Of a stretch of DNA of 64,000 bases, positions 6,596-61,849 are shown piece by piece. A program made the position numbers and the translations under genes. This DNA comes from Laetmonice hystrix (lineage: Eukaryota). The notes below the pieces were generated by a model. That model was given only the letters and a program-made list of their open reading frames with translations. It had not been told where the DNA came from and did no database searches. The stretch is from assembly GCA_965235115.1 (NCBI GenBank), contig OZ249436.1:4156001-4220000 (forward strand), in the 5' to 3' direction. Each line of letters begins with the position of its first letter. The first letter of the stretch is position 1.

Positions 6596-9233
6596 CTAAT
6601 TTTGATCACGGAATCGTAGGGCTTGCTCTCGCACTCGCCGTTCATACTCGGACTTGTTTTGGCTGAAAAGAAAAATCAGACTTGGTTAACAATTCTTCTG
6701 ATTTTGGTGACTGAAAATATCTGAGCCAGAGGTGGTCGAGGCCAGAGGCAGAGGGTCTAGACTTCCATAAGTTAAGATTGGTATTCAGTTTATTCTGATT
6801 ATAAATTTTACCTAAAATCTTCCTCCCTAAGATATAGGGTACAGAATCCCATTCTGAATTTCTCTCCTAACAGAATTCCGTCTAGAGACAGAGTGTTAAC
6901 ACCCATGCAGATAGTTAGAGACAGTTACCTCCAGGTGGGGCTTCACAGCAGTTACTGCATGAATCAGGAAGCGACCCTTCCTCCCAAAAGCATCATAATT
7001 AAATACGATATTTTTTGGAAAAAAATAATTCTCAAACTAATGGAGAACTCCTAGTTTTGGAGGGGACTGACTCCCAGATTTTACAACTTGGAAGTCAGGC
7101 TGTAAACCCAAACAAACAAACTGCCACTTACCAGTATATTGTGTATGCCTCTGCTTGGGCTGGATCACGAATGTTGGGTTCATTGAGCAACTCTTGGATG
7201 CCAAGCAGAATCTGTCAGTAGCAGAAGGAAACATCAATTTGTCAGCATGTCATGTGATTGACTTGAAAACACCAGTTAGCATGTCACTCTGTCAACAGGA
7301 CCAGGGATGTGATTGACTTGAAAACACCTGTTAGCATGTCACTCTGCTCAACAGGACCAGGGATGTGATTGACCTGAAAACACCTGTTAGCATGTCACTC
7401 AGCTCAACAAGACCAGGGATGTGATCGACTTGAAAACACCAGTTAGCATGTCACTCTGCTCAACAGGACCAGAGATGTGATTGACTTGAAAACACCAGTT
7501 AGCACGTCACTCAGCTCAACAGGACCAGGGATGTGATCGACTTGAAAACAACTGTTAGCATGTCACTCTGTCAACAGGACCACGGATGTGATTAACTTGA
7601 AAACACCAGTTAGCATGTCACTCTGCTCAACAGGATCAGGGATGTGATTGACTTCAAAATAAAACACCTGAAAAGATTCTAGAGGGTGTTTCGGGTGAGG
7701 GTTCAGCGAAAATGTGGGTATCTTCTGGGACACCTGAGATGTCTTCTGGGGATATTATATAGCAGTTTTTCATTACCTTTTTTTTATTTTTCAGGCTACA
7801 ATCAAACTTGTACGAATACATTGTCAAAAGAAACTTTCATACTAAGTTTATTCAAAATCTTTTTTTTTTTTAACATAATAATGTCAGTTGCCATGTCATC
7901 AACTCAAATACTACAAATACAATAGGTTTTGAGGAGTTTGCGTACTGGTACCTCAAAAGTCCTCACATGTTCAGACCTGTACATCAGGCGTGACTCTCAC
8001 CTGTTTTATTGTGACAGCTGGTCGCCAATCTTTCTCCTCATCAAGTAACGACAGGCATACCGTCCCAGAGGGATACACATTAGGGTGGAACAGTGGTGGC
8101 TCAAATTTACCTGACAAAAGAAAAATGGCAGTCTGTTAACACATATCCTAAAACAATTTCAGACTTTGCTAATCTTTTGAAAGTCTGCTAATTTCAAGAA
8201 GTCAAAACTTGTCATGGGTTGACATGATCAAACATGCTTAACTCAACTGTAATTTATACTTAGTGATAGAAACCTGACTTACATTTGGGTGGTGATGATG
8301 GATAATCATCTTTGAAGATCATACGTAGTCGGTACAGCCCACCTTCCCAAGGAGTCTGTCAAGTTTATGCAGAAGAAAATGTCAAGTTTATGCAGAAGGA
8401 AATCTCTCAATACTTTTTACACTTACTTTATTCCCAGTGAGGATTCCCACTGTAAAACAACCAACTGTTTACACTCACTCTATTTAAGTTCATTCTTTGA
8501 TGTTGTTAATTTTTTTTAGGAAAGTTCTCTTTCGGATAAAAGTTAAAATATAATCCCTTTTGTTTAAGAGCACATAAAGCTGAAAATAATTAATAGAATT
8601 TGCTTATAATGTGAACCATTTACATTCACCATACTGTGGTTAGTATCACTAGTAGAACTTACCCCTTTTTTCCCTGGAATTGCACACTCCCAATTCATAA
8701 GGTTCAAGGTGCTGTCAGGGTTCCTTGTGGGTTTGGCTACAAATCCCTAGATCAAGTAAGAAAGGTAATATAGGTCAACCTCAAATAATTCAGTTGGCAC
8801 ATGTTCAAACGACTGGCATCCATTTATGATGTTCCATCATCCTCAGTCAGGCTCAGTGGGCCTCAGTTTATGTCTTTGTTCATTTACAGTACTCAATTCA
8901 CTTTAGAACTAGAAATGTTTATAACCAAAGACTTAATCCAGTTTAAGCCAGTTGATAAGCGGGATTTATAACTAGTTACTACTGGTTGCTAAAAAGTCAA
9001 CATTGGCCATCTAGATTAAATTGTCATTGAGATTAATGTCAACATGTGTTAATATAATTTATCCTGATAGTATCACTGTATATTGGTCTCACATGTCTCT
9101 TCTTATCAATTAATTTGTTCTGAAAATAAAAAGACTAATTGAAGGATTGAATGAAAAGCAGACTTACGAAAGGATGGTCCTTACGCCATGCCTTCCTCTC
9201 CTCCGATAGACGTGCAATAGCAATGCCAGACAT
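6596..9233 (-). CDS. UBE2I: SUMO-conjugating enzyme UBC9, 159 aa
   Basis: Exons 9168-9233, 8663-8746, 8283-8355, 8001-8110, 7132-7211 and 6596-6662 total 480 nt, all GT-AG. Protein [28 protein letters not shown]...[38 protein letters not shown]...QALRFRDQN; catalytic Cys intact. Confidence 0.98.
7252..7670. repeat. 55-56-bp tandem repeat, ~7 copies, in a UBE2I intron
   Basis: Unit ATGTGATTGACTTGAAAACACCAGTTAGCATGTCACTCTG(C)TCAACAGGACCAGGG; ends ~40 nt from the acceptor at 7212. Confidence 0.95.
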
Positions 9234-13383: not shown

Positions 13384-23562
<10,179 letters not shown>

Positions 23563-26500
23563 GAGTCACTGTAACGGTCACTATGGGACGTATCGTATCT
23601 ATGGTAAACCTATGGGACGTATCGTATCTATGGTGAAACTATGAGACGTATCGTATCTATGGTGAGACTATGGGACGTAACGTATCTGTGGTAAAACTAT
23701 GGGACGTATCGTATCTATGGTAAAACTATGGGACGTATCGTGTCAATGGTAAAACTAGGAGATCAGCATTCATAAGCTGTCTCCGGACGACTCTGAGCTC
23801 GTGTTGTCGTTACGAACGGACCTTACAACCTAGGAGTCACTGTAACGGTCACTATGGGACGTATCGTATCTATGGTAAACCTATGGGACGTATCGTATCT
23901 ATGGTAAAACTATAGGACGTATCGTATCAATGGTGAGACTATGGGACGTAACGTATCTGTGGTAAAACTATGGGACGTATCGTGTCAATGGTAAAACTAT
24001 GGGACGTAACGTATCTGTGGTAAAACTATGGGACGTATCGTGTCAATGGTAAAACTATGAGACGTATCATATCTATGATAAAACGGCACCATGAATACAA
24101 GCGTGTCTGAACACTATTAATTATGGAAGGCCCTGATGTATACATGTATATTGTCCTTACAAAATCACACCTTCTACCTGCAGCCAGTTATACTGCATGT
24201 ACGGAAATCTGCGTATACCGACAGTGGTGTGCTAAGTAAAGTTCTATAATTGTTAAAAGTTCGTTCACAGTTGCCTTTAACTTCCTGCTTCAGTATTGAT
24301 ATTCAGGGCTTAGGAGAGCCGCCCCCCGGGCTTAAATTAGTAGAGTTTCCCCTGCCCATTTGCTTATTTTTTCAAAATGAGGGCACCATTACAACCCCCC
24401 CCCCCCAAAAAAAAAGGGCTTCAAGTTGCCTGCTCCTTCAAAAGGTGATATTTTCCGGGAACCCTCATACTGTTGTATAATATATTATTATATTCCTTTG
24501 TGTGTGAGAGAACGCAATCATGCCGGCTGATCATGTAGGTGCTGAAGAATGTCAAGTTTGACCAAAATTTGAATAAACAGGCTTAGTGAATATGAAACGT
24601 CCTCGGCATTCGGCGGCTTGTTGAGTTCTCCGTGTCCGCCAATCTCGGTCACCTGACTCTCTCGGGCCGCTGAGGATCTGGATGATCGAGACTGCGTGTC
24701 CGCATGACCTCTAAAGGTCAAATATGATTCCCACGGTTTCGGTGCACTGCGTGAATGTGAACACGACTAGACACAGATATACCGGTGGGGTTTCATTTAC
24801 ACCATACACTTGATCAGCAATTGACTTTTGTAAATATTTTTATTTCATCCGTACTTGACCTTTGACCTTCGCAATATGACATCACATAATAGAATTGTTA
24901 AACTTTGTTATATGTTTTGTTCCTGACTCCCACATGCCTTTTCATCGGCTTTTAGCTATCGTACCTTCCTACATCTTTGTAATACCTTCCTACATCCTTG
25001 TAATAAGATGTGGAAAGGAAACGCACTTAATTAGGCCGATTTCGATTATAAAACCGGGCCAAGGGGACTCAACACTAATGAACGGGGATACGTTATGCTC
25101 AACTGAGCAATCCAATGAAACTTTTCTTTTGGCCGGTTAAAGGACCATGCTAAAATACACGTTTTTGAGGATTTCCGGCAATTATCCAACATGACCGTGT
25201 ACTAGGGACCCAAGTAAATAATCCTACCACTTTTTGTCCTACGTGTTTTCGCTGTGTATGCAGCACAAGTAGGTTCTATACGACCAAACCTATAGATTTC
25301 TCTCGATAGCACATCTCCCGCCATAATTTGCTATAGACAACCTCCCATCAACCCGTGTAATCGCATACTGCGTCACATCCTGCTGTGCACTCTCTGCAGG
25401 TGCTTGGTCACGTGCTTCACTTAGTTGTAAACAATTCAGCAGTTGCACTCGGCATCGTTCGGTATCAAAATGCCACCCAAAAATATTTTACGGAATCGGC
25501 AGAGAACCGGGCAAGGAAAGAAAGATACAGAAGTTGAAAAAGATAGCAAGTCAATCTCGGAAACCAAGGCAAGGGGGTCGTGTCGAGAGAGTAGTGCGCT
25601 AGCGTCTGGCCAAGGCTGTGCGGCCGGCGGGGGAGGGGGGGGGGGGTGACACGCTCGATTCGTTCCCGAGCCGCCATTGTTTCCCGACTCCTTCTGCCAC
25701 GATCAAGTTTCAGATAATTTCCTGACTGATAGCACTAAACGCTTCAAAACAAACCGCCTGAGCATGCGTGAGGGTTCTGCGTGTCACGTGTGTCAACAAA
25801 ATCCACGTGCAAACCGTGGGCGGAAGATGGCCAGCAAGGGGATTCCAAAAACTTTCTCACGCAAAATGGAACTAATAAGTCTGTCTGTGTTTATCAAGCA
25901 ATTTTTATGAAGGATCTCTTCATGAAAACAGCAAAAGTTCTTTGAAATACCGATTTTTCATGTTTCCTGATAATATGCACCTTTAAGATTTCTAACGAAT
26001 CAAGAGTAGGTCGGCCAAAACTTAACTAGGGGGCCTACAATATGTATGACGTAGGAAAATAATCTCGTTTTAATATGAAGAATATTCACGAAATGTTCAT
26101 TTTTATGTTGACGCAAAACGTTGAAAATGCTTCAGTTACACAATGAATGCAATCAATGTGATTTTATTATATTTTAGTGGCTCCCAAGCGTTTTCTGTCT
26201 TTCTAATTATATTATTATTAACTAGCCCGAGGCATAGGAACATAGTACATCGTTTTCCATATTCCGCTAAGAAATCATAATTATGTCCATAATAATGTCA
26301 ACTAAAACCTCGACTGGGCAAGCTGGACAAACTATACGTCACCTGGGATGTAAACCCAGTAAACCGGGTAGAAGAGCTACATCATTCAAGTCTAACAGCA
26401 GTGCTCACAAATCTCTGTTTAGAGTTCAGGGATTTTACAAATCATTGTAAAATCAATAAAATGACAAAAAAACAATTATGATTATATAATCTTTATTTCG

Positions 26501-31161: not shown

Positions 31162-32676
31162 CTATGTTTGAATGCATGCAGTTTCCTCGAAATGCTCCCG
31201 GAGATCGTCGTCGAGTTCAGTAATGAGAGTTGCATCCACTTGTCCCGCTATGTTGTATCGCTCAATGGGATCCGTCGAATGGTTATACAGCTCGCGGAAC
31301 TTGCTCTTGGTCCAGTCTGGTTGCTGTGAATTTTTCGGCCCAAAGTACCAGTGAGTATAGCGAAGGGGGCCCTTCTGAATGGTCAGGCCGTATACGTCCC
31401 TTTGACGTTTACGTCGTAGTGTCGTCGTGTACGCCTTCCCTTCCTGTGCCGGCCTTTCTCCCTTAATGAGGCTCATTAGACTTTTACCCTCCGTACAATA
31501 GGGTTGGATTTGATTACATTGGCATTTCTCTAACATGTCCTGCCCCAGCGCGGCTTCAACCACAGTCGGGAATATATCCACAACTTCCACGACCTCTTTG
31601 ACCCTGGCTTCATTTGTATACCCCGGTACAGATATGAAAAAAACAATTTTGGATGCCAGTCGAAAGATCATATCCTTACCCCAGATAGCGTTCTCACCGA
31701 GATGGTATCCATGATCGCTGACAAGGACCACGACAGTACAGTTGGTCAATCGTAAGGCATCGAGCTCGGCCAGGACCCTTCCAAGCTCCTCGTCCACGTG
31801 CGTCACGGCGGCATAATACGATTTCTTTAGATTTGATATTGTAACAAGGCTTAGACTTTCGTTGAAGTCAATGTCATATTCACCGTTTTCACCATACGTT
31901 GATATTTCGTTCATGGATGGCCAACCTATGTTATTATTAGGCCTAGGGTCATAAACATATCGGGGTTCCGGATCAGAGATAGCGACATTTTCATATTTAT
32001 CCAGATGACTTTGCAGATGAACGAATGGTAAGTGGGGCTTTCTGAACCCTACCGCCAGCAAGAAGCTGCAGCTCTGCCCGTTATTCAATTCTCTCAAAGC
32101 ATCAATCGCTTTGTTTGCTATATCCGTGTCCGGAAGAGGCGTGGAATCAAGTGTATCGTTGTCATCTGCAACAGTCGTGGCCGGACCTGTCCCTTTCCAT
32201 ACTCTCTGACTCCTTCTACTTGCATCGCTTGTGCTGTCCCAAGTCTCCTCGTACATGGAGTCGTCGTGAAATACCTTTCCAATCGCCTTAGCTGTGCAAT
32301 TTTGGTTCCGAAAGAACTCTGCCATGTTCTTAATGTTCTCATTCTCAGGTCTATTTGTGCAGGCGGTTCTATAGTTATCGTTGTTCTTTCACACACACGT
32401 CCCGAGTTGAGATCGGCTGGTCAGCATGGCCGTACGACTGGGACCACACAGACCTCTCGGTGCATAGGCAGCAGTGAATTCTATGCTATGTGCCTTTAAT
32501 TTGTCTATATTCTCAGTTTTCATCTCTGAATCCAAACGCAAGTCATCTACCATGATGAAGAGCACATTCTTCTTGCCGCAGTTCTCACTGCAGACACCAG
32601 AAACATGCTGAGGGATGACTGTCAAGATACATACAATTACTGATAGTAAGAGCGTACAAAGATACGCGCCAGCCAT
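31162..32676 (-). pseudogene. Intronless secreted formylglycine-dependent sulfatase (iduronate-2-sulfatase-like), 504 codons with one in-frame TGA at codon 96
   Basis: ORFs 32389-32676 and 31162-32325 share a frame (offset 351 nt); the only stop between them is TGA at 32389-32391. Hydrophobic signal peptide; motifs NVLFIMVDDLR, CGPSRTAMLT, GKVFH, GFRKPHLPF, SDHGYHLGE..WGK, ELYN...DP.E..N. Confidence 0.85.
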
Positions 32677-32767
32677 GTCTGCCAGCTTATCCCAAACTGA
32701 GCGTTCTGGTAGGATGGAGCCGGGAGGTGATCACGTGGTCTGTACAACACTCATTCCCTCATGTTAA

Positions 32768-43993: not shown

Positions 43994-46900
43994 CTAGACT
44001 GTAAGCTTTGAACCCATCAGTGACATCTCGAGTTGGGGGTTTCCATAGTGACACGGAATGACGCGGTTTATGGTGACGGAAGTGATTGTACCGCGACCTT
44101 TTCCCCGGGTCACCTGTTCCTTCCGGAATAGAAACGTCTGCGCCGCGCGCAACAGACGCCCCCGGAAATCAGCAATGTCTGTCTGCGGAAAGAGCTGCGT
44201 CGGATTGTCTACGTCTCCGAGCACCTCTGTTCTCTCTCGTTTGTCTTTACCTCTCACTATCTGCTTATTGGTCTCATCAAACAAACGAATTCTGCGGCAT
44301 TTCGTATTCATTTCCGGTCTGAGGCCGTGGATGGTGTATGGTAGTCGAGACTCGAGGAACCCCTCGATGTGTTTCCGTTTGAGGCTGTCCATGGTGTCCG
44401 TTGCCATGGGGCGACGTTTCTTCCGGCGAACAAGAAGGCGGAAGTTTTCGATGCTGTACTTTAAATTTAACGAGTTTTTGTTTAAGGGTGGGGCGGCCCG
44501 GTCTCCTGTCGGACACGGTGGCTGCTGCTCGCCATGCGATGCTAGATTGTCTGGTTCTGAATTCAGATCGGCAAGTGTTTGCCCTTGTGAATGTCCTTCA
44601 GGTTTGGCCGGCTGAGAAACGACCTGCTGTTGATGCGCCCGTACGGACCCGTTAATTGTTCCAATGTTATAAAGTAATGCGGCCCTGTCTCCATGGACTT
44701 TCCTTGAGGCGACTTTGTCCCTCCATCCCGCCGACAAACACCTTTTGTTTGGTGACCTCCAGTGACTTTGCTCAGTATCCTCCATGGCATCGCGGTCAAC
44801 CAGAGCTCTAGATTTAGACCCCCTATAAGCCAACACTTTGGGTTCTGCTGCATTGTGAACGAGTCCCTTGGCTTGGTATCCACCTGCTAGTTCCTCCTCT
44901 GATATGACGACATGTTCTTTGGTGTCTACAGGTCGGAATGGTACAATGGAAATCTGGCTTTTGCTTGGCGCCCGTGTTGTGAGTTGCTGCCATCGCCAGG
45001 TGGTGGAGCCACCGTCGCCCTGTTCATAGCCATCTTCGCCTCTGTCATCAATAAAACGTATTATCGAATTTACCATGCTTTCGTAGGAAGGTTTGGGTTG
45101 GATCGACGTTTTTGAAGTCGTGTTGGACCCGGTCTTGCCGTCAACGAGTCTGCCATTTGTAATGAGTTTGCTTGCCATGTCTAATGGACCGCACGTGGTC
45201 AATGCCTTGGCCAGCAGACTTACCACCGAATCGCTGTGAGATACGGCGGTTAGGTCAAGGGAATGCTTTGATTTGACAAAGGACCCCTCCGAGTGTTTAC
45301 CTTGCGACAGGAATGACTTTTTAGGAACAAGGGTAAAGGACGTGGCAGAAGAACTGTCTGTTTTCAGTGAATGTTCGCGTGAAGTCGGTGAAACGGGTCG
45401 ATTCGAGGAGAACCCAGGGCTGTCGGTACGCGGGACCTGGCTGGTGGTAACAAGGGTCGATGACGTCATGCTGCTAGCCGAGTCGAGCTGTGACGATACC
45501 GCCCTGTCCACGCCGTAGTACGTGAACGTAATCTTGACATCTTCGGTGTTAAGTGTAATCACCTGAAATAAACCGTTTACAAACTGTGAGACGCACTTGC
45601 CTTTAATACGCATACATTGTTGTGATAGTTTTAAGGAAATTAAATTTGAATTTTCAATTATAAAGTCAGTGAGTATGAACAATTGAACATAAATTAATTA
45701 CAAGTAAAAGAATGACAGGACCACTAGGGTCTAGGCCTATTATAGAAGCGGCGAATCCCGAATTTGGGTGTTTTGAAATAATAGGCCTATTGACCATTTT
45801 TAGACAGACTATTTCCTCTAATGCATGTTACATCAGGCATCAAATTGAAACACCATTTAGGGCTATATAAAGGAACAATCAAGTCTAACAAAAAAAACAA
45901 CAATGGCCAAAGCTCTGTCAACCGGAAGTTGCGCACACAGAGACCGGAAATAGGCTACACATTGTCGATTCACCCGTTTGAAAAAATTCTAAGATTCGTC
46001 CCAAGGTCTGATTCGGCCCCAGTTCGCCCCTTCGAGACATTTTATGTTGGGTCATTCGCCTTTCTGTATTTTGTAAATTTTCTTATTGGGGGGGGGGGGG
46101 GGGGTCTAAGCGATAGAAAAATGAATATAAAGTGTCATACAAGGTATAGGGGCTATAGCCGATAGTTATTGAGTACCGTAATTTTCTCTCGAGGGCGAAT
46201 CCACAATAGTTAGGCTAGGCCTAGATCTATGGTTGAGGACAGTTCCCCTCTAGTCTATAAATGCGACGCGAAACGCGAAATCCGTTCAGTTAAGACCAGT
46301 TCGACAAGTTGAGTGGTCACAGTGAATCTAGACTTACTAAGTTAGCTATTCAGATTTTTAAACCCAGAAATATATTTTGACAAGTTGGCTCTCTTTGTTA
46401 ATGACTATAGATTTAGCCTAAGCCTACTCCAGTTTTCAGGAAGAAAGAATGATTACCCTATAGCCTATACTAATAGACAGATCTATGCTATGTTTGTATC
46501 TATTTTTGTAGACTTACATTATTATCCTCTTTGAGAACAGTCTGGTAGCAGGGGATCTGGCATGTGTCGAAGCGTCCAACTTTATGCGTGTTCAGGTATC
46601 CGGCGTCTGAGAGTAAATAAAGATTCTCCACAAACTGGTCGAGTAGTTCACCTTCACAGACGCGCAGTGAGCTGCAGTCCTGCCACTCATCCGAATACAG
46701 GAACGACCAGAAGCTACCTACCGTGTCAAATGAGGACAAACAATCTATTTTAACACATCTAATTTTTTTTAAACACAGCAGACAGAATCATATGCAACTA
46801 TAAATGTAAGTCTATAAATGCAGCCAAGGGTGTAGCAAGGGGAGGTTCGAGGTTGCCTGGACCCCCCCCCCCAGCCCCATAAAAAAAAGTAATAGATAAT

Positions 46901-50700: not shown

Positions 50701-53700
50701 AACCATGTCTGAGGCAACCTCAAAAACGCTGTCTGTCTCCTCCTTGTCCCCCAGTCATTAATGAGTCAATCATTTCTGAGACGGCTCCTAGGACCTCTTT
50801 AGGCAGCCTATGCCAAACCTTATAAACTACCCTGAGTTTACCTGGAAATACCCAAACGTGGGACAGGAACGATTTCTAGGGGAGTGATTTAGCTCTCCTC
50901 GAATAACCAAGGAGAGTGATAGATCACTCCCCTAAAGATTTCAAACGGCAAGCACTGAATTATTGATTTCCAACTTTGTACACATCATTTCTGTCACTGC
51001 ATGATAAACTTAAAGGCCGCCGTTCACCGATAAACAATTGTTTGTTCGGCGTTTTGATCACTGCACACAAGCGGATTTTTGCTCGTGAACAAAATGTTCG
51101 TGAACAAATGTTCATCATCTGCGGCGGCCTTCAGTCTAAATCTAGCCTCAAAATATTTATAACTCTGCTTATTTTTTCACGTGCGGTGATTCTCCTATGT
51201 TTAAAACTCTGTGCTATTCCCCGGAAGTGGCTCTGTTCCACCCATTATCATACCACATACCACAGGACGACGTCACTTTCACTCCCTATTGAAGTTAGTC
51301 TGTCCTCCATGTTTGGTAAAATTCTCCAAACTCCTAGTGAAGTTACATACCAAAAACTTGAGTACCGTTTTGAGTTTAACTTGAGTTTGCTGGTGTTTTC
51401 CCAGATGCTGTCTGGCACTAAGGAGGCCCAGCCATACCAGAGAAGTGATGTATCTGCTCCCAGCCCCACTATGAGGAAGATATTGAGTAGTCAGTCGAGT
51501 GACGGTGGACAGTTGAACAGTGCTGCTTCTTCAGGTAAGTTTGTTACAGCAAAAATATCCTAACACAGATTTCGCTTGACTGAATTTTGTACATAATGTA
51601 AAGAGGCACAGAATAAACTGCAAATAATTCTTGCTGTGGAAGTTATCCCTATTAAATGTTAAAGTAAGATGTCATGACATCTTGAATTCATCTCATTGAG
51701 TGTGAATGAGTATAATAGTAAACTTGAATTGGAATGGTAATTTTGTCTACAGCTAGCTCAGGAAGACCTGGTGAGTTAGGGTACTCGTCATATAGCAGTC
51801 TGGTAAAATACTGTAAAAAAATCTACAGGCCACTTAGTCCCCACTTCACAGGAGTAACAAATTCTTGATTAACATTTCCTCCGGCGTTGGCTCATTTGAT
51901 ACTAGCTGACCTGGTTTGGAAATACTGCCAGCTTGTTTGGTCCTTTGATCCATGCTAGTTACACCATCTGGCATAAGTCCAACACCCAAAACTTTGTCCT
52001 TTGTGTCCTCCACATGTTGCTCCACATGTCTCATGTTGTTAGGTCCTGTTCACTGAGATGAGGGTCTTGCCAGTCGTAAACTTTCTTTCATTGTCAATGT
52101 AGCAAAAGTAAATTATTACCGGTAAGTGACTATTGGCAAGCATACACTTAAGTAGGTAGAGTTCTAAACCAGTCAGTACTTCGGGAACATTCCATTTACA
52201 TGTGACGATTATGACTGGTTTAGATCGGCATGAAATTTTAAATCGTGTTCACCTCTTCCTGTTTAGACCCCAGTGTAAATTACAACAATACTTGACCCAT
52301 GTGGTAAATATTCGCTAAAGCTGTTACAACAATACTTGACCCATGTGGTAAATATTCGCTAAAGCTGTTACAACAATACTTCACCCATGTGGTAAATATT
52401 CGCTAAAGCTGTTACAACAATACTTCACCCATGTGGTAAATATTCGCTAAAGCTGTTACAACAATACTTCACCCATGTGGTAAATATTCGCTAAAGCTGT
52501 TACAACAATACTTTACCCATGTGGTAAATATTCGCTAAAGCTGTACTTACTCCACAGGTTCCAGCAGAGGAATGGTTCTCACCACGACACGGGGTAAACA
52601 CTGTTGACGTACATGTTGTTAGACCTACTTTACAGTTTACCCACACTGTTGGGCGTTAGGCCCGTTCTTTCTCAAGCACTGGTGAAGTGAAGAGCATGCC
52701 TTTAATCCCTCACCTTCTTTTTCGTCCTTCAAAGTTTGATTGTTCCGTGAATGCAAATTACAAAATTGGAAAATTTTATTGGTCTAGATTTTTTCACTTA
52801 AATGGTGAAGACCAAAGTCGTGTGGTGTGCAGAGATTTCATTATTATTTCATGGATGCAGGAAACAAAAGAAATTAATGATTACATGTCTGATCAGCAGT
52901 TGGCCTTGTCAAAATTATCATGTCAAATTCTGTGACAAGAGCCCAGCTACGGTAATTTTAATTAAATTAAGAAACCTCTATATATTAAATTTATATAATC
53001 CTTTGATGTGTACTGTCATGTTCAAAGTTACTCTAACTTTAACAACATCCAAAAACACTTTGTAATTTGTAATTTGAGGCTGAGCATCCTAACTTCTTGT
53101 TTCCTGTGTACATGTAGTTTGGTACCTGTCCAAGCCACCAGTCTGCATGTATCCCACCCCACACTCTGAGCGTCAGTTTGAGTCGCCGAGGCACGTACAA
53201 TGTACTTGGTGTTGTGTTGTTGTCGTCCCCACAGACCGCCTCCAACCTTCCTCAGCCGGTTCCTCATCCTGCTCCTCCATCACCCAGCACTCCTACCTGA
53301 GGGACAGGCGACACCTGGCCACGGCCTTCGCTCAGGACCTGAGCTACTCGGACGTTCAGGGTCAGTCGGTGCAGTCGGGTCACTCGGTGCAGTCGGGTCA
53401 CTCGGTACACGACGACCAGCGGGACCGTGTCCAGCACAATGCTGGCCGCGTCCGGAGAGTCCCTGTCTACCTCCCAGGTATACCACCAGGTGGAGCCCCT
53501 GTCCCTCACCACTCGGTTATGGTCAGACGTGCGTGAGGCAAAGAAAAGTAAATAAGGGTTATGAAAGAAGCCACACTTCCGCAGATTTCAAGCCCCTTTC
53601 CAAATCCCCCTTTTTTCACCCTCTCGGTTCATATTGCACACAGTTTAATGAATGACTTCCATGTTAAGGCACAGTGCATACAACTTCTCCTGTTCGCTCA

Positions 53701-56700
53701 GTCAGTGTTTTTAAGTAACCATTTATTATGCTCCATACTATGCTCTTTTGTCTTTACACCGAGGACACCATGGTGTTGGGTACCGTTTACAATCTTAGAT
53801 AAAATTAATGTCACAGAAAGTTGAATTTACTCAGTACTTTTGTTAAAAATGACCATAGATTGAGGTTTACAAGAACTGAGCACATTTGTCCTTGCTCATG
53901 CATCCTGACCTGTAGAAAGTAAAGATTTCATTTGATGAATGAAAAATAATCTTCGACTCATTTAGCAAACTGCACATATCTTTGATGGTTTGACCATGTA
54001 GTTAAAGATTACTTCTCTATTCCCGTCCGCATACTGCCGTCTGTTTAAGGACGCTCAGTTTATACAGTTTGACAAGTAGACAGAATGACAAGATGAGTGG
54101 CCACTGTTGTAGGTGATCGTGTCGTGTTTGCTGAGAGTCCCACGTCACCAGGTATACCTGTCGTATACAGGACTCAGGAGGAGCGAGCAGCCAACCCAGA
54201 TAGATTAAATCTCGACAGGTAAACTCACTCCTACTGTGTGCTTCTAAACTACCGTTATCTCGTCACTACCTGTTGTAGTCATACTTCAATTCTTTCTCAT
54301 AAAACTGTTAATACGTTAATAGAAACGGTTATTATAGGATTGTATTACTTTCTGTGACCAACGAGCATTCAAGGTCTGAGGTGACTAGTGAGAAAAACTC
54401 TATGACATGTAGTCGGATTAGTGTATTTTTTAGCCACCAGGGGGACAATGGCAGTGAAGGAAGTGATCAACTGATATTAGTATATATGTGTACCGCCAGG
54501 TGGACAATGGTAGGATGAACTGCTATATTAGTGTTTCTGTTTACCACCAGGCGGAGGCTAACAGTCTGCCCCCTACTGGAAGGCGAGGAACAACTGCGGC
54601 TGTTGAATTACCAGCACAACATGATATCCAGTATTGACCATCTCCATGGCCTCAAACGCCTCATCTTCCTTGATCTCTATGACAACCAGATCGACTGTAT
54701 CTCAGGACTGGATGCACTCAAGTCCCTGCGTGTTCTTATGCTGGGCAAGAACAGGTAAATTGGTCAATGGAAGTCGAGGCACTTAACATGAAATCTGCTT
54801 TCAATTTTTTTTAATTTTTTTTTATTGAGCATCTTTAAACAGGATTACCTACTCGGCTGAGAGCCGTCATGAAAGCGGGGTCCTGTAATCACATCATCCG
54901 ACATATGTACATGTTTTAAATTACACGATAAGATTGAAAGTCAAAAGTGAATACAATCTAGGGATTAAAAATAAGCATATTGAGATCACAGAAAACTAAC
55001 ACTACATCACACCATATATCACAGAGAACTAACACTACATCACACCATATATCACAGAAAAACTAACACTACATCACACCATATATCACAGAAAAACTAA
55101 CACTACATCACACCATATATCACAGAAAAACTAACACTACATCACACCATATATCACAGAAAAACTAACACTACATCACACCATATATCACAGAAAAACT
55201 AACACTACATCACACCATATATCACAGAAAAACTAACACTACATCACACCATATATCACAGAAAAACTAACACTACATCACACCATATATCACAGAAAAA
55301 CTAACACTACATCACACCATATATCACAGAAAACTAACACTACATCACACCATATATCACAGAAAACTAACACTACATCACACCCTATATCACAGAAAAC
55401 TAACACTACATCACACCATATATCACAGAAAACTAACACTACATCACACCATATATCACAGAAAACTAACACTACATCACACCATATATCATATACTTCA
55501 AACAAATGAGTTCAAAGTGTGCCACAGTATCACAGTTACTTCTGTTGGTCGATTCACCAGGAGTTCCTCTCTATGTTATTTTCTGATAGAAACATTTTTA
55601 TGGAATAAGTTTTGATTAGTTTTTTGAAGTAGTCATATTGATTAATGTTTCTTATGTGTGGTAGGAGGTGCTTCCATAACATCGGTTTGGTATAACAGTT
55701 GGACTTTTTAAATAATTCAGATTTGGGTAATGAGACATGTAATGGGACATGTAATGGGACATCGTGGGTTCTAGTTCGGATGTCTCTGTTGTCCATTTGT
55801 ACCTGTCTTTCTATTATCTCGTTAAAGGTGATTCCATGGTATGAGGATGTCTGTCATTTAGTACGAATTAGGTTTAACTTCTTCCACCATATATTTGCTC
55901 CTACTATTTTCAACAGAATCCGACGGATTGAACATCTTGAGGCCCTTACTAAGTTGGATGTCCTTGACCTTCATGGCAATAAGGTGTGTAGCATGCATCA
56001 ACACACTCTAAAAACAGATTGGTTGCCAAGATATTGGTTGAATTGATCAACCAATATTGATTGAAATGTGTCCAACCAATCTGGAATGGTTGGACACATT
56101 TCAATCAATATTGGTTAATTTAACCACATGTGTTTTTAGAGTGCACATGTTCACCAGAAACATCTAGTGTTTATCTGTTTGGAGTGTACGATTGGAGTGT
56201 ATTGTGGGGTATATATCTGATTGGAGTGTCGTGTGGGTATATCTGATTGGAGTGTATTGTGGGGTATATATCTGATTGGAGTGTCGTGTGGGTATATCTG
56301 ATTGGAGTGTATTGTGGGGTATATATCTGATTGGAGTGTCGTGTGGGTATATCTGTTTGGAGTGTATTGTGGGGTATATATCTGATTGGAGTGTCGTGTC
56401 GGGTATATATCTGATTGGAGTGTCGTGTGGGGTATATATATCTAATTGGAGTGTCGTGTGGGGTATATATCTGTTTGGAGTGTATTGTGGGGTATATATC
56501 TGATTGGAGTGTCGTGTAGGGTATATATCTGATTGGAGTGTATTGTGTGGTATATATCTGATTGGAGTGTCATGTGGGTATGTCTGATTGGAGTGTATTG
56601 TGGGGTATATATCTGATTGGAGTGTCATGTGGGTATATCTGACTGGAGTGTATTGTGTGGTATATATCTGATTGGAGTGTATTGTGGGGTGTATCTGTTT

Positions 56701-59700
56701 GGAGTGTATTGTGGGGTATATATCTGATTGGAGTGTATTGTGGGGTATATATCTGTTTGGAGTGTATTGTGGGGTATATATCTGATTGGAGTGTATTGTG
56801 GGGTGTATCTGTTTGGAGTGTATTGTGGGGTATATATCTGACTGGAGTGTATTGTGGGGTATATATCTGATTGGAGTGTATTGTGGGGTATATATCTGAC
56901 TGGAGTGTATTGTGGGGTATATATCTGATTAGAATGTATTGTGGGGTATTTATCTGATTAGAATGTATTGTGGGGTATATATCTGATTGGAGTGTATTGT
57001 GGGGTATATATCTAATTGGAGTGTATTGTGGGGTATATATCTGTTTGGAGTGTATTGTGGGGTATATATCTGTTTGGAGTGTATTGTGGGGTATATATCT
57101 GTTTGGAGTGTATTGTGGGGTATATATCTGTTTGGAGTGTATTGTGGGGTATATATCTAATTGGAGTGTATTGTGGGGTATATATCTGTTTGGAGTGTAT
57201 TGTGGGGTATATATCTGATTGGAGTGTATTGTGGGGTATATGTCTGACTGGAGTGTATTGTGGGTTATATATCTGTTTGGAGTGTATTGTGGGGTATATA
57301 TCTGACTGGAGTGTATTGTAGGGTATATATATATCTGATTGAAGGTGTATTGTGGGGTATATATCTGACTGGAGTGTATTGTGTATGATTGGAGTGTATT
57401 GTGGGGTATATAGATATCTGATTGGAATGTATTGTGGGGTATATATCTGACTGGAGTGTATTGTGGGGTATATGTCTGACTGGAGTGTATTGTGGGGTAT
57501 ATATCTGATTGGAGTGTATTGTGGGGTATATATCTGATTGGAGTGTATTGTGGGTATATATCTGATTGGAGTGTATTGTGGGGTATATATCTGACTGGAG
57601 TGTATTGTGTGGTATATATCTGATTGGAGTGTATTGTGTGGTATATGTCTGACTGGAGTGTATTGTGTGGTATATATCTGATTGGAGTGTATTGTGGGGT
57701 ATATATCTGATTGGAGTGTATTGTGGGGTATATATCTGATTGGAGTGTATTGTGGGGTATATATCTGATTGAGTGTATTGTAGGGTATATATCTGATTGG
57801 AGTGTATTGTGGGGTATATATCTGATTGAGTGTATTGTAGGGTATATATCTGATTGGAGTGTATTGTGGGGTATATATCTGATTGGAGTGTATTGTGGGG
57901 TATATATCTGATTGGAGTGTATTGTGGGTATATATCTGACTGGAGTGTATTGTGGGGTATATGTCTGACTGGAGTGTATTGTGGGGTATATATCTGATTG
58001 GAGTGTATTGTGGGGTATATATCTGATTGGAGTGTATTGTGGGGTATATATCTGATTGGAGTGTATTGTGGGGTATATATCTGATTGGAGTGTATTGTGG
58101 GGTATATATCTGATTGGAGTGTATTGTGGGGTATATATCTGATTGGAGTGTATTGTGGGGTATATATCTGATTGGAGTGTATTGTGGGGTATATGTCTGA
58201 CTGGAGTGTATTGTGGGGTATATATCTGATTGGAGTGTATTGTGGGGTATATATCTGATTGGAGTGTATTGTGGGTATATATCTGATTGGAGTGTATTGT
58301 GGGGTATATATCTGACTGGAGTGTATTGTGTGGTATATATCTGATTGGAGTGTATTGTGTGGTATATGTCTGACTGGAGTGTATTGTGTGGTATATATCT
58401 GATTGGAGTGTATTGTGGGGTGTATATCTGACTGGAGTGTATTGTGGGGTATATATCTGTTTGGAGTGTATTGTGGGGTATATATCTGATTGGAGTGTAT
58501 TGTGGGGTATATATCTGTTTGGAGTGTATTGTGGGGTGTATATCTGATTGGAGTGTCGTGTGGGGTATATATCTGATTGGAGTGTATTGTGGGGTATATA
58601 TCTGATTGGAGTGTATTGTGGGGTATATATCTGACTGGAGTGTCGTGTAGGGTATATATCTAATTGGAGTGTCGTGTGGGGTATATATCTGATTGGAGTG
58701 TATTGTGGGGTATATATCTGATTGGAGTGTATTGTGGGGTATATATCTGATTGGAGTGTATTGTGGGGTATATATCTGATTGGAGTGTATTGTGGGGTAT
58801 ATATCTGTTTGGAGTGTATTGTGTGGTATATATCTGATTGGAGTGTATTGTGGGGTATATATCTGTTTGGAGTGTATTGTGGGGTATATATCTGATTGGA
58901 GTGTCGTGTGGGGTATATATCTGACTGGAGTGTATTGTGGGGTCTATATCTGATTGGAGTGTATTGTGGGGTCTATATCTGATTGGAGTGGTAATGATGT
59001 GCTAGACTGACCCTGTAATGATGTGCCAGGCTGACACCGTAATGATGTGCTAGACTGACCCTGTAATGATGTGCCAGGCTGACACCGTAATGATGTGCTA
59101 GACTGACCCTGTAATGATGTGCCAGGCTGACACCGTAATGATGTGCTGGACTGACCCTGGAATAATGTGCTAGACTAACTAGACTCGTCATGTACGAGAC
59201 TGACACTGTAATGATGTGCTAAACTGACAAGACTCTGACTCATCATGTGCTGAACTGACTGTAATTATGTGATTTGTGTTGACAGATCAGTCAGGTAGAG
59301 CACCTATCTCACCTGTCAGAGTTGAGGGTTCTGGACTGACTAGACTCTGTCTCGTCATGTGCTGGACTGACTGTAATGATGTGATTTGTGTTGACAGATC
59401 AGTCAGGTAGAGCACCTATCTCACCTGTCAGAGTTGAGGGTTCTGGACTGACTAGACTCTGTCTCGTCATGTGCTGGACTGACTGTAATGATGTGATTTG
59501 TGTTGACAGATCAGTCAGGTAGAGCACCTATCTCACCTGTCAGAGTTGAGGGTTCTGGACTGACTAGACTCGTCATGTGCTGGACTGACTGTAATTATGT
59601 GATTTGTGTTGACAGATCAGTCAGGTAGAGCACCTATCTCACCTGTCAGAGTTGAGGGTTCTGGACTGACTAGACTCTGTCTCGTCATGTGCTGGACTGA

Positions 59701-60335
59701 CTGTAATTATGTGATTTGTGTTGACAGATCAGTCAGGTAGAGCACCTATCTCACCTGTCAGAGTTGAGGGTTCTGGACTGACTAGACTCTGTCTCGTCAT
59801 GTGCTGAACTGACTGTAATTATGTGATTTGTGTTGACAGATCAGTCAGGTAGAGCACCTATCTCACCTGTCAGAGTTGAGGGTTCTCAATCTGGCCGGGA
59901 ATAACATAGAAAACGTGGACAACTTGTCCGGAATGGAAGCTCTCACCGAACTCAACCTCAGACGCAATCGCATTCGTACCCTGGTAAATATCTTACATTT
60001 GTGGCAATTGAACAAAATAAGCTATTTTTCCTGAGACTATAAATGGTTAAATTACAATAGATATAAAGGATATAAAGACTTGAAATGGTGAAAGCATGGG
60101 TTGAGTGTCTCCAATAGAAAGTGAACTGTTTACATTATGATTCTACCCAATATTATTGATTCTGGTATTCCGGAAGTGCTAATGCAAAAAGAAAGTTGCG
60201 ATTAAAGTTAAATGTGGAGATGTAAGTGTTTATTATTTCTGTAGACTGGATCTGTATTGTTTACACCTTGTAGAACGATGTTGACAACTTGCCAAGTCTA
60301 CAACGCCTTTTCCTGAGCTTCAACGAGATTGCTTG
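47744..60335 (+). CDS. LRRC49: Leucine-rich repeat protein 49 (tubulin polyglutamylase complex subunit), 5' part; continues beyond the window
   Basis: Exons 47744-47794, 50244-50315, 51405-51534, 51753-51770, 52558-52593, 53235-53477, 54113-54218, 54551-54754, 55917-55983, 59840-59983 and 60274-60335 are phase-consistent. PDRLNLDRRRLTVCPLLEGEEQLRLLNYQHN...LDLYDNQI...LRVLMLGKNRI...LDVLDLHGNKI...LRVLNLAGN...LQRLFLSFNEI. The first five exons are less certain. Confidence 0.92.
50576..50957. mobile_element. MITE with 17-bp imperfect TIRs and a 6-bp target duplication
   Basis: AATTAT|CAGACCTTGCCGTTTGA ... TCAAACGGCAAGCACTG|AATTAT; internal hairpin ~50877-50934. Confidence 0.7.
51014..51130. mobile_element. 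Small MITE-like element, possibly PIF/Harbinger-like
   Basis: TAA|AGGCCGCCG ... CGGCGGCCT|TCA. Confidence 0.5.
52280..52543. repeat. 44-bp tandem repeat, 6 copies, ending 14 nt before an LRRC49 microexon
   Basis: Unit TTACAACAATACTTSACCCATGTGGTAAATATTCGCTAAAGCTG. Confidence 0.96.
54985..55491. repeat. 33-34-bp tandem repeat, ~15 copies
   Basis: Unit ATCACAGAAAA(A)CTAACACTACATCACACCATAT. Confidence 0.96.
56004..56143. mobile_element. 140-bp CMC/EnSpm-like MITE
   Basis: CA|CACTCTAAAAACA ... TGTTTTTAGAGTG|CA (2-bp duplication, CACT termini); long internal palindrome centred near 56082. Confidence 0.8.
56171..58990. repeat. 29-bp satellite, ~95 copies, in an LRRC49 intron
   Basis: Unit ATCTGATTGGAGTGTATTGTGGGGTATAT. 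Confidence 0.98.
58991..59225. repeat. 24-bp repeat arranged as alternating A/B dimers (48 bp)
   Basis: GTAATGATGTGCTAGACTGACCCT alternating with GTAATGATGTGCCAGGCTGACACC. Confidence 0.9.
59223..59886 (+). repeat. ~112-bp tandem array of an LRRC49 splice acceptor plus exon start, 6 copies
   Basis: GTGATTTGTGTTGACAG|ATCAGTCAGGTAGAGCACC...GAGGGTTCT with AG ending at 59285, 59397, 59509, 59615, 59727 and 59839; only the last continues into the full exon. Confidence 0.97.
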
Positions 60336-61849
60336 GTAAGTGTTTTTGATTTACAGTCTTACCCATGGCCCCAAGAATCTGCAGTGCGTTCCACAGACAG
60401 AAAACCTTGTTCAAACTATCCAGCTGTATAATTTACAAGCCACGTTGTTCTTTCCTTACTGTGTAAAGTCGAAGAAAAGGACGGATGAGGTCACCACTTT
60501 AAAAATTATTATAATACCACCATAACGTGCTGTACATGCGAGAATGGTTGACATAATTATATTACGACTCGACCATCACATGTAGTACCCGTAGGTCCTT
60601 GAGGGGGTTCTTGTTAGGTGTTTTGTACAAGACCACATGAAGTACCGTCAGGAAGGTGGTACCAGATTGTACTTGACCAATAGGTCACCTTTTCTTGTTG
60701 ACTTTTGTAGTATCAGTATAGTTCAGTATAGGTTTCATATGACCTACTCAGTTGGTGTCGGTGAATGTGTAAATTGGACTTCTAGCCATAAAACAATATT
60801 TAACATACTTCACAGATTAATCAAATTTATTTTTTCTAAATAACAGATTTAGCGTGGAATGTGGTGATTTAATGCAAAAAAAACCACCCAAACTTCTTTT
60901 TAGAAAATTAGTAATAGGCATACAATCCGAATATATCTTTAACTATTAATGTATACCTTACATAGATTAAGGACTGATGGATTAACTTAACTGGATAATC
61001 CGGTCGTCCTGTGCCAAGAGTGGCGCTGTGAGTTGCCAGGTAAAGATGATAACCCCACCCCCCCCCCCACCCCCTCCTCCGCCGGGTAGGCCGAGGTGTT
61101 ACGTACAGAGAGTGGCCCGACTCGACCACTCTTCTTCCGGTCGGGTCTCGCATAACATAAAACAGATGACCTGACCACAGGACCCGGGCAGTGCACTCAG
61201 TGTGCTGGCACGGCAAGCAACGGTTGGAAAACTCGGGATCTAATCATCCACAATGGATTGCCTTTAACTTGTCGGTTGTCTCCGTTGTGCTGAAGGGCGG
61301 CTTCTTTTCTTGAAGTTTCAGTCTTTATTTAACATAACTTTGTGGATAATAGTTGACCAGGAGTGGAGCACAAGCCAAATATGGATCGGTGCCCTGACCA
61401 GGGGGTCACAGGTGTAGTTAATGAAATCTGCTAGAAATACCTCAGAGAGAACCACATGGTTACTGGAGGTTGTATGTGGACGCAGATGGTTTTCATTGAT
61501 CGAGATCAGTGGATCATAACATGAGTGATGGCAGTGATTGGAGAGGCAGGTTGAGGCACAGTGCATGTTACGATTCGTGTCCACGACCCCAAACATCTCA
61601 TGTTTGGGGTGTTGGCTGTTTCCACAGATCGCTTGTCGATGGCAAGCAGCCTATTGATTGACGTGGGCTTCCACTCTTCTCAACGAGCATAGCTAATATA
61701 AAATGGATGTCGGTGTGTTTGTACTTACAACAGGCGGCAGCAACATGTTGTAGAAAACATATCGTGTAATCAAACAGAAAAATCACCGACCTTGTGCATG
61801 ACGTCAGCTGGATTAATAGTTGAGGTGTGTTCATACTTCTCTACGCCAG

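Follow-up and report, generated by a model that had tools for sequence, protein, structure and literature searches.

The 64,000-nucleotide (nt) stretch of contig OZ249436.1 analysed here (assembly GCA_965235115.1, positions 4,156,001 to 4,220,000; hereafter the window, within which all positions are counted) contains exons of the gene LRRC49, and one intron-exon boundary of this gene is occupied by a six-unit tandem array at 59221–59886. We propose that this array is a mirage, i.e., a minisatellite that spans the boundary and is tolerated as splicing ignores the spare copies, and we put the probability of this reading at about 0.8. It draws on the structure of the array, on its presence in genomic reads, and on an RNA-like run in which the acceptor of the last copy served the main form.

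The six units measure 112, 112, 112, 106, 112 and 112 nt, and each of them consists of an intron end of about 65 nt, an acceptor and 47 nt of the start of the real exon. All lie on the plus strand. Unit 1 (59221–59332) forms the left edge, with 65 nt of intron end, an AG ending at 59285 and 47 nt of exon start; it is followed by unit 2 (59333–59444; acceptor 59397, internal GT 59407), the identical unit 3 (59445–59556; acceptor 59509), unit 4 (59557–59662; 106 nt, having lost 6 nt from the intronic head by deletion; acceptor 59615), unit 5 (59663–59774; acceptor 59727) and unit 6 (59775–59886), the right edge, which holds the authentic acceptor at 59839. Tandem Repeats Finder reported a period of 112, 6.0 copies, 96% matches and a score of 1237, and as a repeat the array is beyond chance. 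The mean column identity of the units is 97%, with the variation confined to the intronic part; at the position of 59807, copies 2–5 carry G and copies 1 and 6 carry A. Across the 47 exonic nt, copies 1–5 are identical to the real exon and read ISQVEHLSHLSELRVLD, followed by TGA as codon 18 (TGA at 59337, 59449, 59561, 59667 and 59779), and CAG|GTAGAG is found 9 nt downstream of every acceptor. These features had been noticed in a previous reading made from the letters of the DNA (the sequence-only reading), whose six acceptor coordinates proved exact; its five upstream copies running into TGA were borne out, with 5/5 stops located, and the CAG|GTAGAG motif that it described was present in each copy. 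The location of an array inside an intron-exon boundary is not rare in this window, 27% of which lies in arrays with a period of at least 20, and two of the 18 mapped acceptors (one in LRRC49, one in RINT1) fall inside such an array.

Four public runs from one sample (X1–X4), in the form of contigs with depths, were compared with the window over a mapped range of 59775–60900; copies 1–5 lie outside this range, and junctions to the upstream exons were taken from loose contig ends. X1–X3 cover introns, and the head-to-tail junction joining 59886 to 59775 stands in all three, with depths of 264, 213.5 and 213.6. The tandem duplication is therefore not an assembly artefact. A single-copy genome, misassembled into six units, has a practically negligible chance of being correct. 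It could appeal to the fact that the genomic runs may be those behind the assembled window, and these runs, as a possible source of the assembly, therefore test the assembly and not the population; yet the junction appears in 3/3 runs at 4 to 8 times the flank depth, and the differences among the copies follow a pattern that agrees with the neighbouring minisatellite. The sequence-only reading had named a single copy in genomic reads as evidence that would overturn it, and the reads gave the head-to-tail junction instead.

The ratio of unit depth to flank depth is expected to be 4.1–4.3 if both haplotypes resemble the assembly, and at most 2.5 if one haplotype is single-copy. The observed values were 4.05–5.2 in X1, 4.6–4.7 in X2 and 6.6–7.7 in X3, none of them near 2.5; X3 had no coverage at 59889–60040, and its excess is possibly due to library bias. 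Judging from depth, several copies are probably present on both haplotypes, and since the X1 and X2 values fit multi-copy haplotypes, the normal mRNA probably derives from multi-copy alleles. The flank shows heterozygosity in this sample, and the left-edge copy in X2 differs from the assembled one.

In X4, three contigs report on splicing at the array. The first runs continuously from 59838 to 59982 and is then spliced to the exon at 60274 (depth 38.7). The second joins the exon 55917–55983 to the exon start without an extra 9 nt, and hence without an added ISQ (depth 35.9), and the third joins the exon 54551–54754 directly to the exon start (depth 12.8). All three are compatible with the copy-6 acceptor. 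None of them holds a unit junction, a retained copy or intronic unit sequence, none shows a joint of 59848 to 60274 or the use of the acceptor at +9, and the X4 depth over 59775–59812 is 0. The canonical product, in which 55983 is joined to 59840, is thus the main form, at contig resolution in one run. The sequence-only reading had set out this product as the outcome pointing to functional silence, and it is what X4 displays; the idea of five decoys under strict exon definition, also raised there, fits the canonical main form.

Splice sites were scored with weight matrices derived from 18 donors and 18 acceptors in the window, and exons were mapped for RINT1 (14) and LRRC49 (5), 17 internal ones spanning 62–242 nt. 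The six array acceptors score 9.6–9.8 and share the same branch-point candidate at −28. The authentic exon (59840–59983, plus strand, 144 nt) ends in the donor CTG|GTAAAT, which scores 8.6; exons running from copies 5 to 1 to this donor would measure 256–698 nt (256 nt for copy 5), above the 242-nt maximum of the 17 mapped exons. The use of copy 6 is observed, and exon definition would be the mechanism behind it: copy 6 alone would pair with a good donor across a 144-nt exon, copies 1–5 would be removed with the intron, and leaks would carry a premature stop and be degraded by nonsense-mediated decay (NMD). In a study on human splicing, long flanking introns shift the choice to the 3′ site nearest across the exon (PMC9225289). 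Two other selectors were considered and rejected. A sequence advantage of copy 6 fails as copies 1, 4 and 5 have the same final 30 intron nt, and RNA structure fails as copies 5–6 together with the exon fold like shuffled sequences (z −1.46, 6/100).

Several points weigh against the mirage reading. X4 is taken as RNA from its exon-only coverage and a GT..AG joint rather than from a record, and the expression data comprise the contigs of one RNA-like run from one sample. In the contigs the heterozygous site 59908 was collapsed, and a 7-nt indel bubble preserved in X3 was collapsed in X1 and X2. As minor paths, and even allelic paths of equal length, can disappear from contigs, a form with the additional 9 nt (ISQ) making up less than about half could be lost. 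A rare loop with a retained copy could also have been trimmed, and the incoming X4 depth (48.7) exceeds the mean of the outgoing contig (38.7). Depth is no copy number, and the X3 ratio (6.6–7.7) lies above both models. The weight matrices have a small basis. Finally, upstream 3′ sites are preferred overall in the human data, and long introns merely lessen this preference (PMC9225289); therefore exon definition alone does not guarantee the choice of the last copy, and exonic enhancers beyond +47 may be needed for it.

The equal strength of the acceptors would also suit an unlikely alternative, namely that the spare copies are leaky decoys that control dose. Use of copy 5 or 4 would lead to the TGA at codon 18 and to NMD, and output would fall with copy number. 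Besides the similar scores and the branch candidate at −28 that all copies share, the exon defined by copy 5 (256 nt) barely exceeds the local size range, each of the stops after the upstream copies lies 202–644 nt upstream of the next junction, and upstream 3′ sites are often preferred in the human data (PMC9225289). On the other side, no X4 contig contains the unit junction or intronic unit sequence, while a different stop-bearing form makes up about 26%, and the two haplotypes both seem to carry several copies, without any indication of a single-copy allele against which dose could be regulated. This other form omits the exon 55917–55983 by joining 54754 to 59840 (depth 12.8 versus 35.9 for inclusion) and is out of frame, with TAG at 59850, 131 nt ahead of the next junction. 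As this form makes up about 26%, abundant products of the upstream acceptors would probably not escape notice through NMD alone. The copy-number-dependent NMD put forward in the sequence-only reading thus found no support, X4 having no contig with a retained copy.

The skip itself is the sole unexplained observation at the locus. The skipped 67-nt exon has an acceptor score of −0.6, among the weakest mapped. An inverted repeat of undefined strand (56046–56119) can form a hairpin with 36-bp arms about 60 nt past its donor (folding z −7.2). The skip may reflect noise where introns are inflated by repeats, or it may be unproductive splicing under regulation; the data here do not tie it to the array.

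We consider it very unlikely that the array is a nascent microexon or an intermediate of intron gain, in which the first 9 nt of an upstream copy are spliced via CAG|GTAGAG, or the AG|GT at +9 is spliced again. If the 9 nt were joined to the normal acceptor, the product would be in frame and gain ISQ (an extra ATCAGTCAG), following the pattern of potato RdRp (an RNA-dependent RNA polymerase gene). If the 9 nt of copy 1 were joined to the CAG at 59848, the product would again be in frame and its mRNA identical to the canonical one, following the pattern of Rogers; as this route rebuilds the normal sequence, reverse transcription PCR therefore cannot settle it. The internal donor (at 59848/59849 in the authentic exon) matches the U1 consensus at 6/9 positions, like several real donors. 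Such a gain has been proven once for a boundary-crossing duplication, in potato (PMC4974935), and has been modelled for mirages (PMC3087553). The data argue otherwise. The main form has no extra ISQ, and the three X4 contigs show neither the 59848 joint nor the +9 acceptor. The internal sites score near the bottom of the real ones: the donor reaches 3.7, above 1 of 18 real donors, and the +9 acceptor 0.2, above 3 of 18 real acceptors, compared with 8.6 and 9.6 for the real donor and acceptor. In human data, the upstream one of 3′ sites at most 9 nt apart is strongly preferred (PMC9225289). None of the 120 listed homologues, many of which are isoforms from few species, has an insertion at the position of the array in the leucine-rich repeat.

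A microexon context was likewise not found at the array. Neural microexons of the SRRM4 type have UGC between the branch point and the acceptor, a long branch distance and an extended pyrimidine tract, according to vertebrate data in PMC12871342, where UGC is not universal. At the array the nearest branch candidate stands at −28, the sole TGC at −38, and 15–16 of 30 nt are pyrimidines. The strong acceptors are followed by ATC, and the AG|GT at +9 is a weak acceptor; a recursive (ratchet) site is a strong acceptor directly followed by GT. It is quite improbable that the spare copies serve, in a particular tissue, as a series of up to five 9-nt microexons in frame or as stepping stones, with copy number setting how many ISQ could be added to one leucine-rich repeat, partly without a trace in the mRNA and visible in lariats alone. 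A literature search for microexon birth by tandem duplication returned no matching paper. With no ISQ in the main form and with weak internal sites, the nascent microexon or intron-gain intermediate suggested in the sequence-only reading found no support.

The mirage reading accounts for the array through its surroundings. Its features agree with those of a mirage: the repeats are head to tail and span the boundary, all six copies keep the AG and the branch candidate, regular mRNA splicing is undisturbed in the main form (3/3 X4 contigs), and, at few sites, the inner copies are homogenised while the edge copies stand apart. Upstream of the array lie a 29-bp minisatellite of 97 copies (56190–58990, plus strand), which forms the bulk of the 3856-nt intron, and a 24-bp minisatellite (58991–59229, plus strand), whose degenerate units form the intronic head of the 112-bp unit. 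About 3585 of the 3856 intron nt are tandem repeats, and about 270 nt would remain otherwise. Slippage or unequal crossover may have fused the adjacent 24-bp minisatellite to exon base +47, with the breakpoint at the short near-match GTTCT / GTGCT; the breakpoints share a 4/5 near-match, and the last 24-bp units can be aligned with the intronic head of the 112-bp unit. Later unequal exchange would have produced six copies and homogenised the inner ones. Repeat turnover would in this way have spread into the exon, the long intron would favour the last acceptor, and the LRRC49 protein would be unchanged.

The gene was identified as LRRC49 from one exon that matched 336 relatives; the best 120 of the 336 are 70–85% identical, and most of them are named LRRC49. 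By their coordinates, the five LRRC49 exons form one 193-aa open frame, which aligned without gaps to 26/26 homologues compared. On the plus strand these include a 204-nt exon (54551–54754), which the skip form joins straight to the repeated start of the exon; the 67-nt exon (55917–55983), present in the main form; and, downstream of the authentic exon, a 62-nt exon (60274–60335). Pfam gave no match for 2/4 short LRRC49 exons. In the LRRC49 tree, the host sequence was placed next to the annelid Capitella with weak support (93/80), and Branchiostoma was absent among the 120 matches listed. The host is an invertebrate, and its protein sequences suggest that it is probably a lophotrochozoan. In mammals, the tubulin polyglutamylase complex counts LRRC49 among its subunits (PMC13376646). 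The heterozygous site 59908 (A/C; C in X2) lies in the real exon and changes an Ile codon synonymously, and it could serve allele-specific splicing counts in raw reads. Further upstream, a 44-bp array of six copies (52280–52544) stops about 14 nt before a putative LRRC49 acceptor near 52558, which would open a candidate exon.

Repeats also meet exon boundaries elsewhere in the window. RINT1 was mapped as 14 exons forming a chain of 791 codons, which shares 49% identity with a homologue across 790 positions; a full HMMER search found 194 homologues, and a word-index search with one RINT1 exon matched 0/189 candidates. A second acceptor mirage lies in RINT1 at 15118–15285, with a 67-bp unit, 12 copied exon nt and an intron of 367 nt, and its decoy acceptors at 15139 and 15206 (CAG) outscore the real TAG at 15273. 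A minisatellite at 18686–22412, with about 144 copies of a 26-bp unit, stops 1 nt from the RINT1 acceptor at 22413, and its unit resembles the sequence upstream of this acceptor, minus the AG. At 23486–24028, a tandem unit of 271 bp, which also holds a 29-bp minisatellite, duplicates the last approximately 75 coding nt of RINT1 and its stop codon. Outside these two genes, a 66-bp tandem duplication at 1310–1438 begins at the donor of a C2H2 zinc-finger exon, its second copy having GC for GT. On the minus strand, 31162–32730 holds two adjacent long open reading frames of 408 and 113 aa, which from their motifs look like one candidate sulfatase-like gene, intronless and broken by a single stop; 43994–45697 is a 567-aa open frame; and the exon 8564–8746, for which Pfam gave no match, presumably belongs to a candidate relative of the SUMO-conjugating enzyme UBC9. 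Across the window, Pfam had no match for 3 of 9 segments.

In the most likely case the array matters little, being one more mirage, outside lancelets. It nevertheless offers a natural test of acceptor choice, with six equal acceptors, probably on both haplotypes, of which one is used; the RINT1 array would be a sharper test, as its short 367-nt intron should favour upstream acceptors. For annotators it is a warning that mirage arrays yield false exon fragments. A large loss of correct LRRC49 splicing could affect cilia, and the data here indicate no such loss. Were microexon use true, the intron-gain model that was put forward for mirages in 2010 would have a direct example in this array.

A literature search, which covered few subscription papers, found no report of mirages in lophotrochozoans. 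The human CBS variant c.844_845ins68 duplicates the final 52 nt of intron 7 together with the initial 16 nt of exon 8, and there, too, splicing employs the downstream acceptor and removes the upstream copy (PMC7490669). It is a polymorphism with two copies, whereas LRRC49 has six, apparently on both haplotypes. The human F7 intron 7 37-bp variable number tandem repeat is likewise a boundary minisatellite with identical, normally silent pseudo-sites, but it lies on the donor side, where the first copy adjoins the intact exon (PMC1557585). In potato RdRp, an intron end and exon start were also duplicated, and a cryptic donor in the upstream copy could pair with the downstream acceptor; that case has two copies, the stronger donor GTAAG, 106 junction reads and an exon gained (PMC4974935), whereas in LRRC49 the donor is GTAGAG and the would-be exon has 9 nt and was not seen as a main product. 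The AG|GT model of Rogers was tested in ATP2A on a wholly exonic duplication, with 6–16% splicing (PMC3265369). The LRRC49 unit also holds AG|GT, and splicing from the first GT to the last AG would restore the mRNA. The model, however, deals with duplications that lie entirely within exon sequence and would otherwise disrupt the gene (PMC3265369), while 65 of the 112 nt of the LRRC49 unit are intronic and include the real acceptor; as this acceptor is duplicated too, no new intron is needed. The closest likeness is to the mirages of amphioxus, reported in BflGb6, BflGb9, Adh3, troponin C and PGBD5 (PMC3087553, PMC3902484). BflGb6 has arrays of 6 and 3 units of 150–160 bp, was spliced normally by RT-PCR and prompted the intron-gain model (PMC3087553). 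Both the mirage structure and its intron-gain idea have been published before (PMC3087553, PMC4974935). The amphioxus mirages are marked by copy-number polymorphism and somatic instability; for LRRC49 the corresponding observation is limited to a second left-edge sequence in X2. The LRRC49 host differs in not being a lancelet by protein identity, and it shares with the amphioxus cases the tandem intron 3′ end and exon 5′ part, the preserved splice signals, the normal mRNA, and inner copies that are homogenised while the edges are not.

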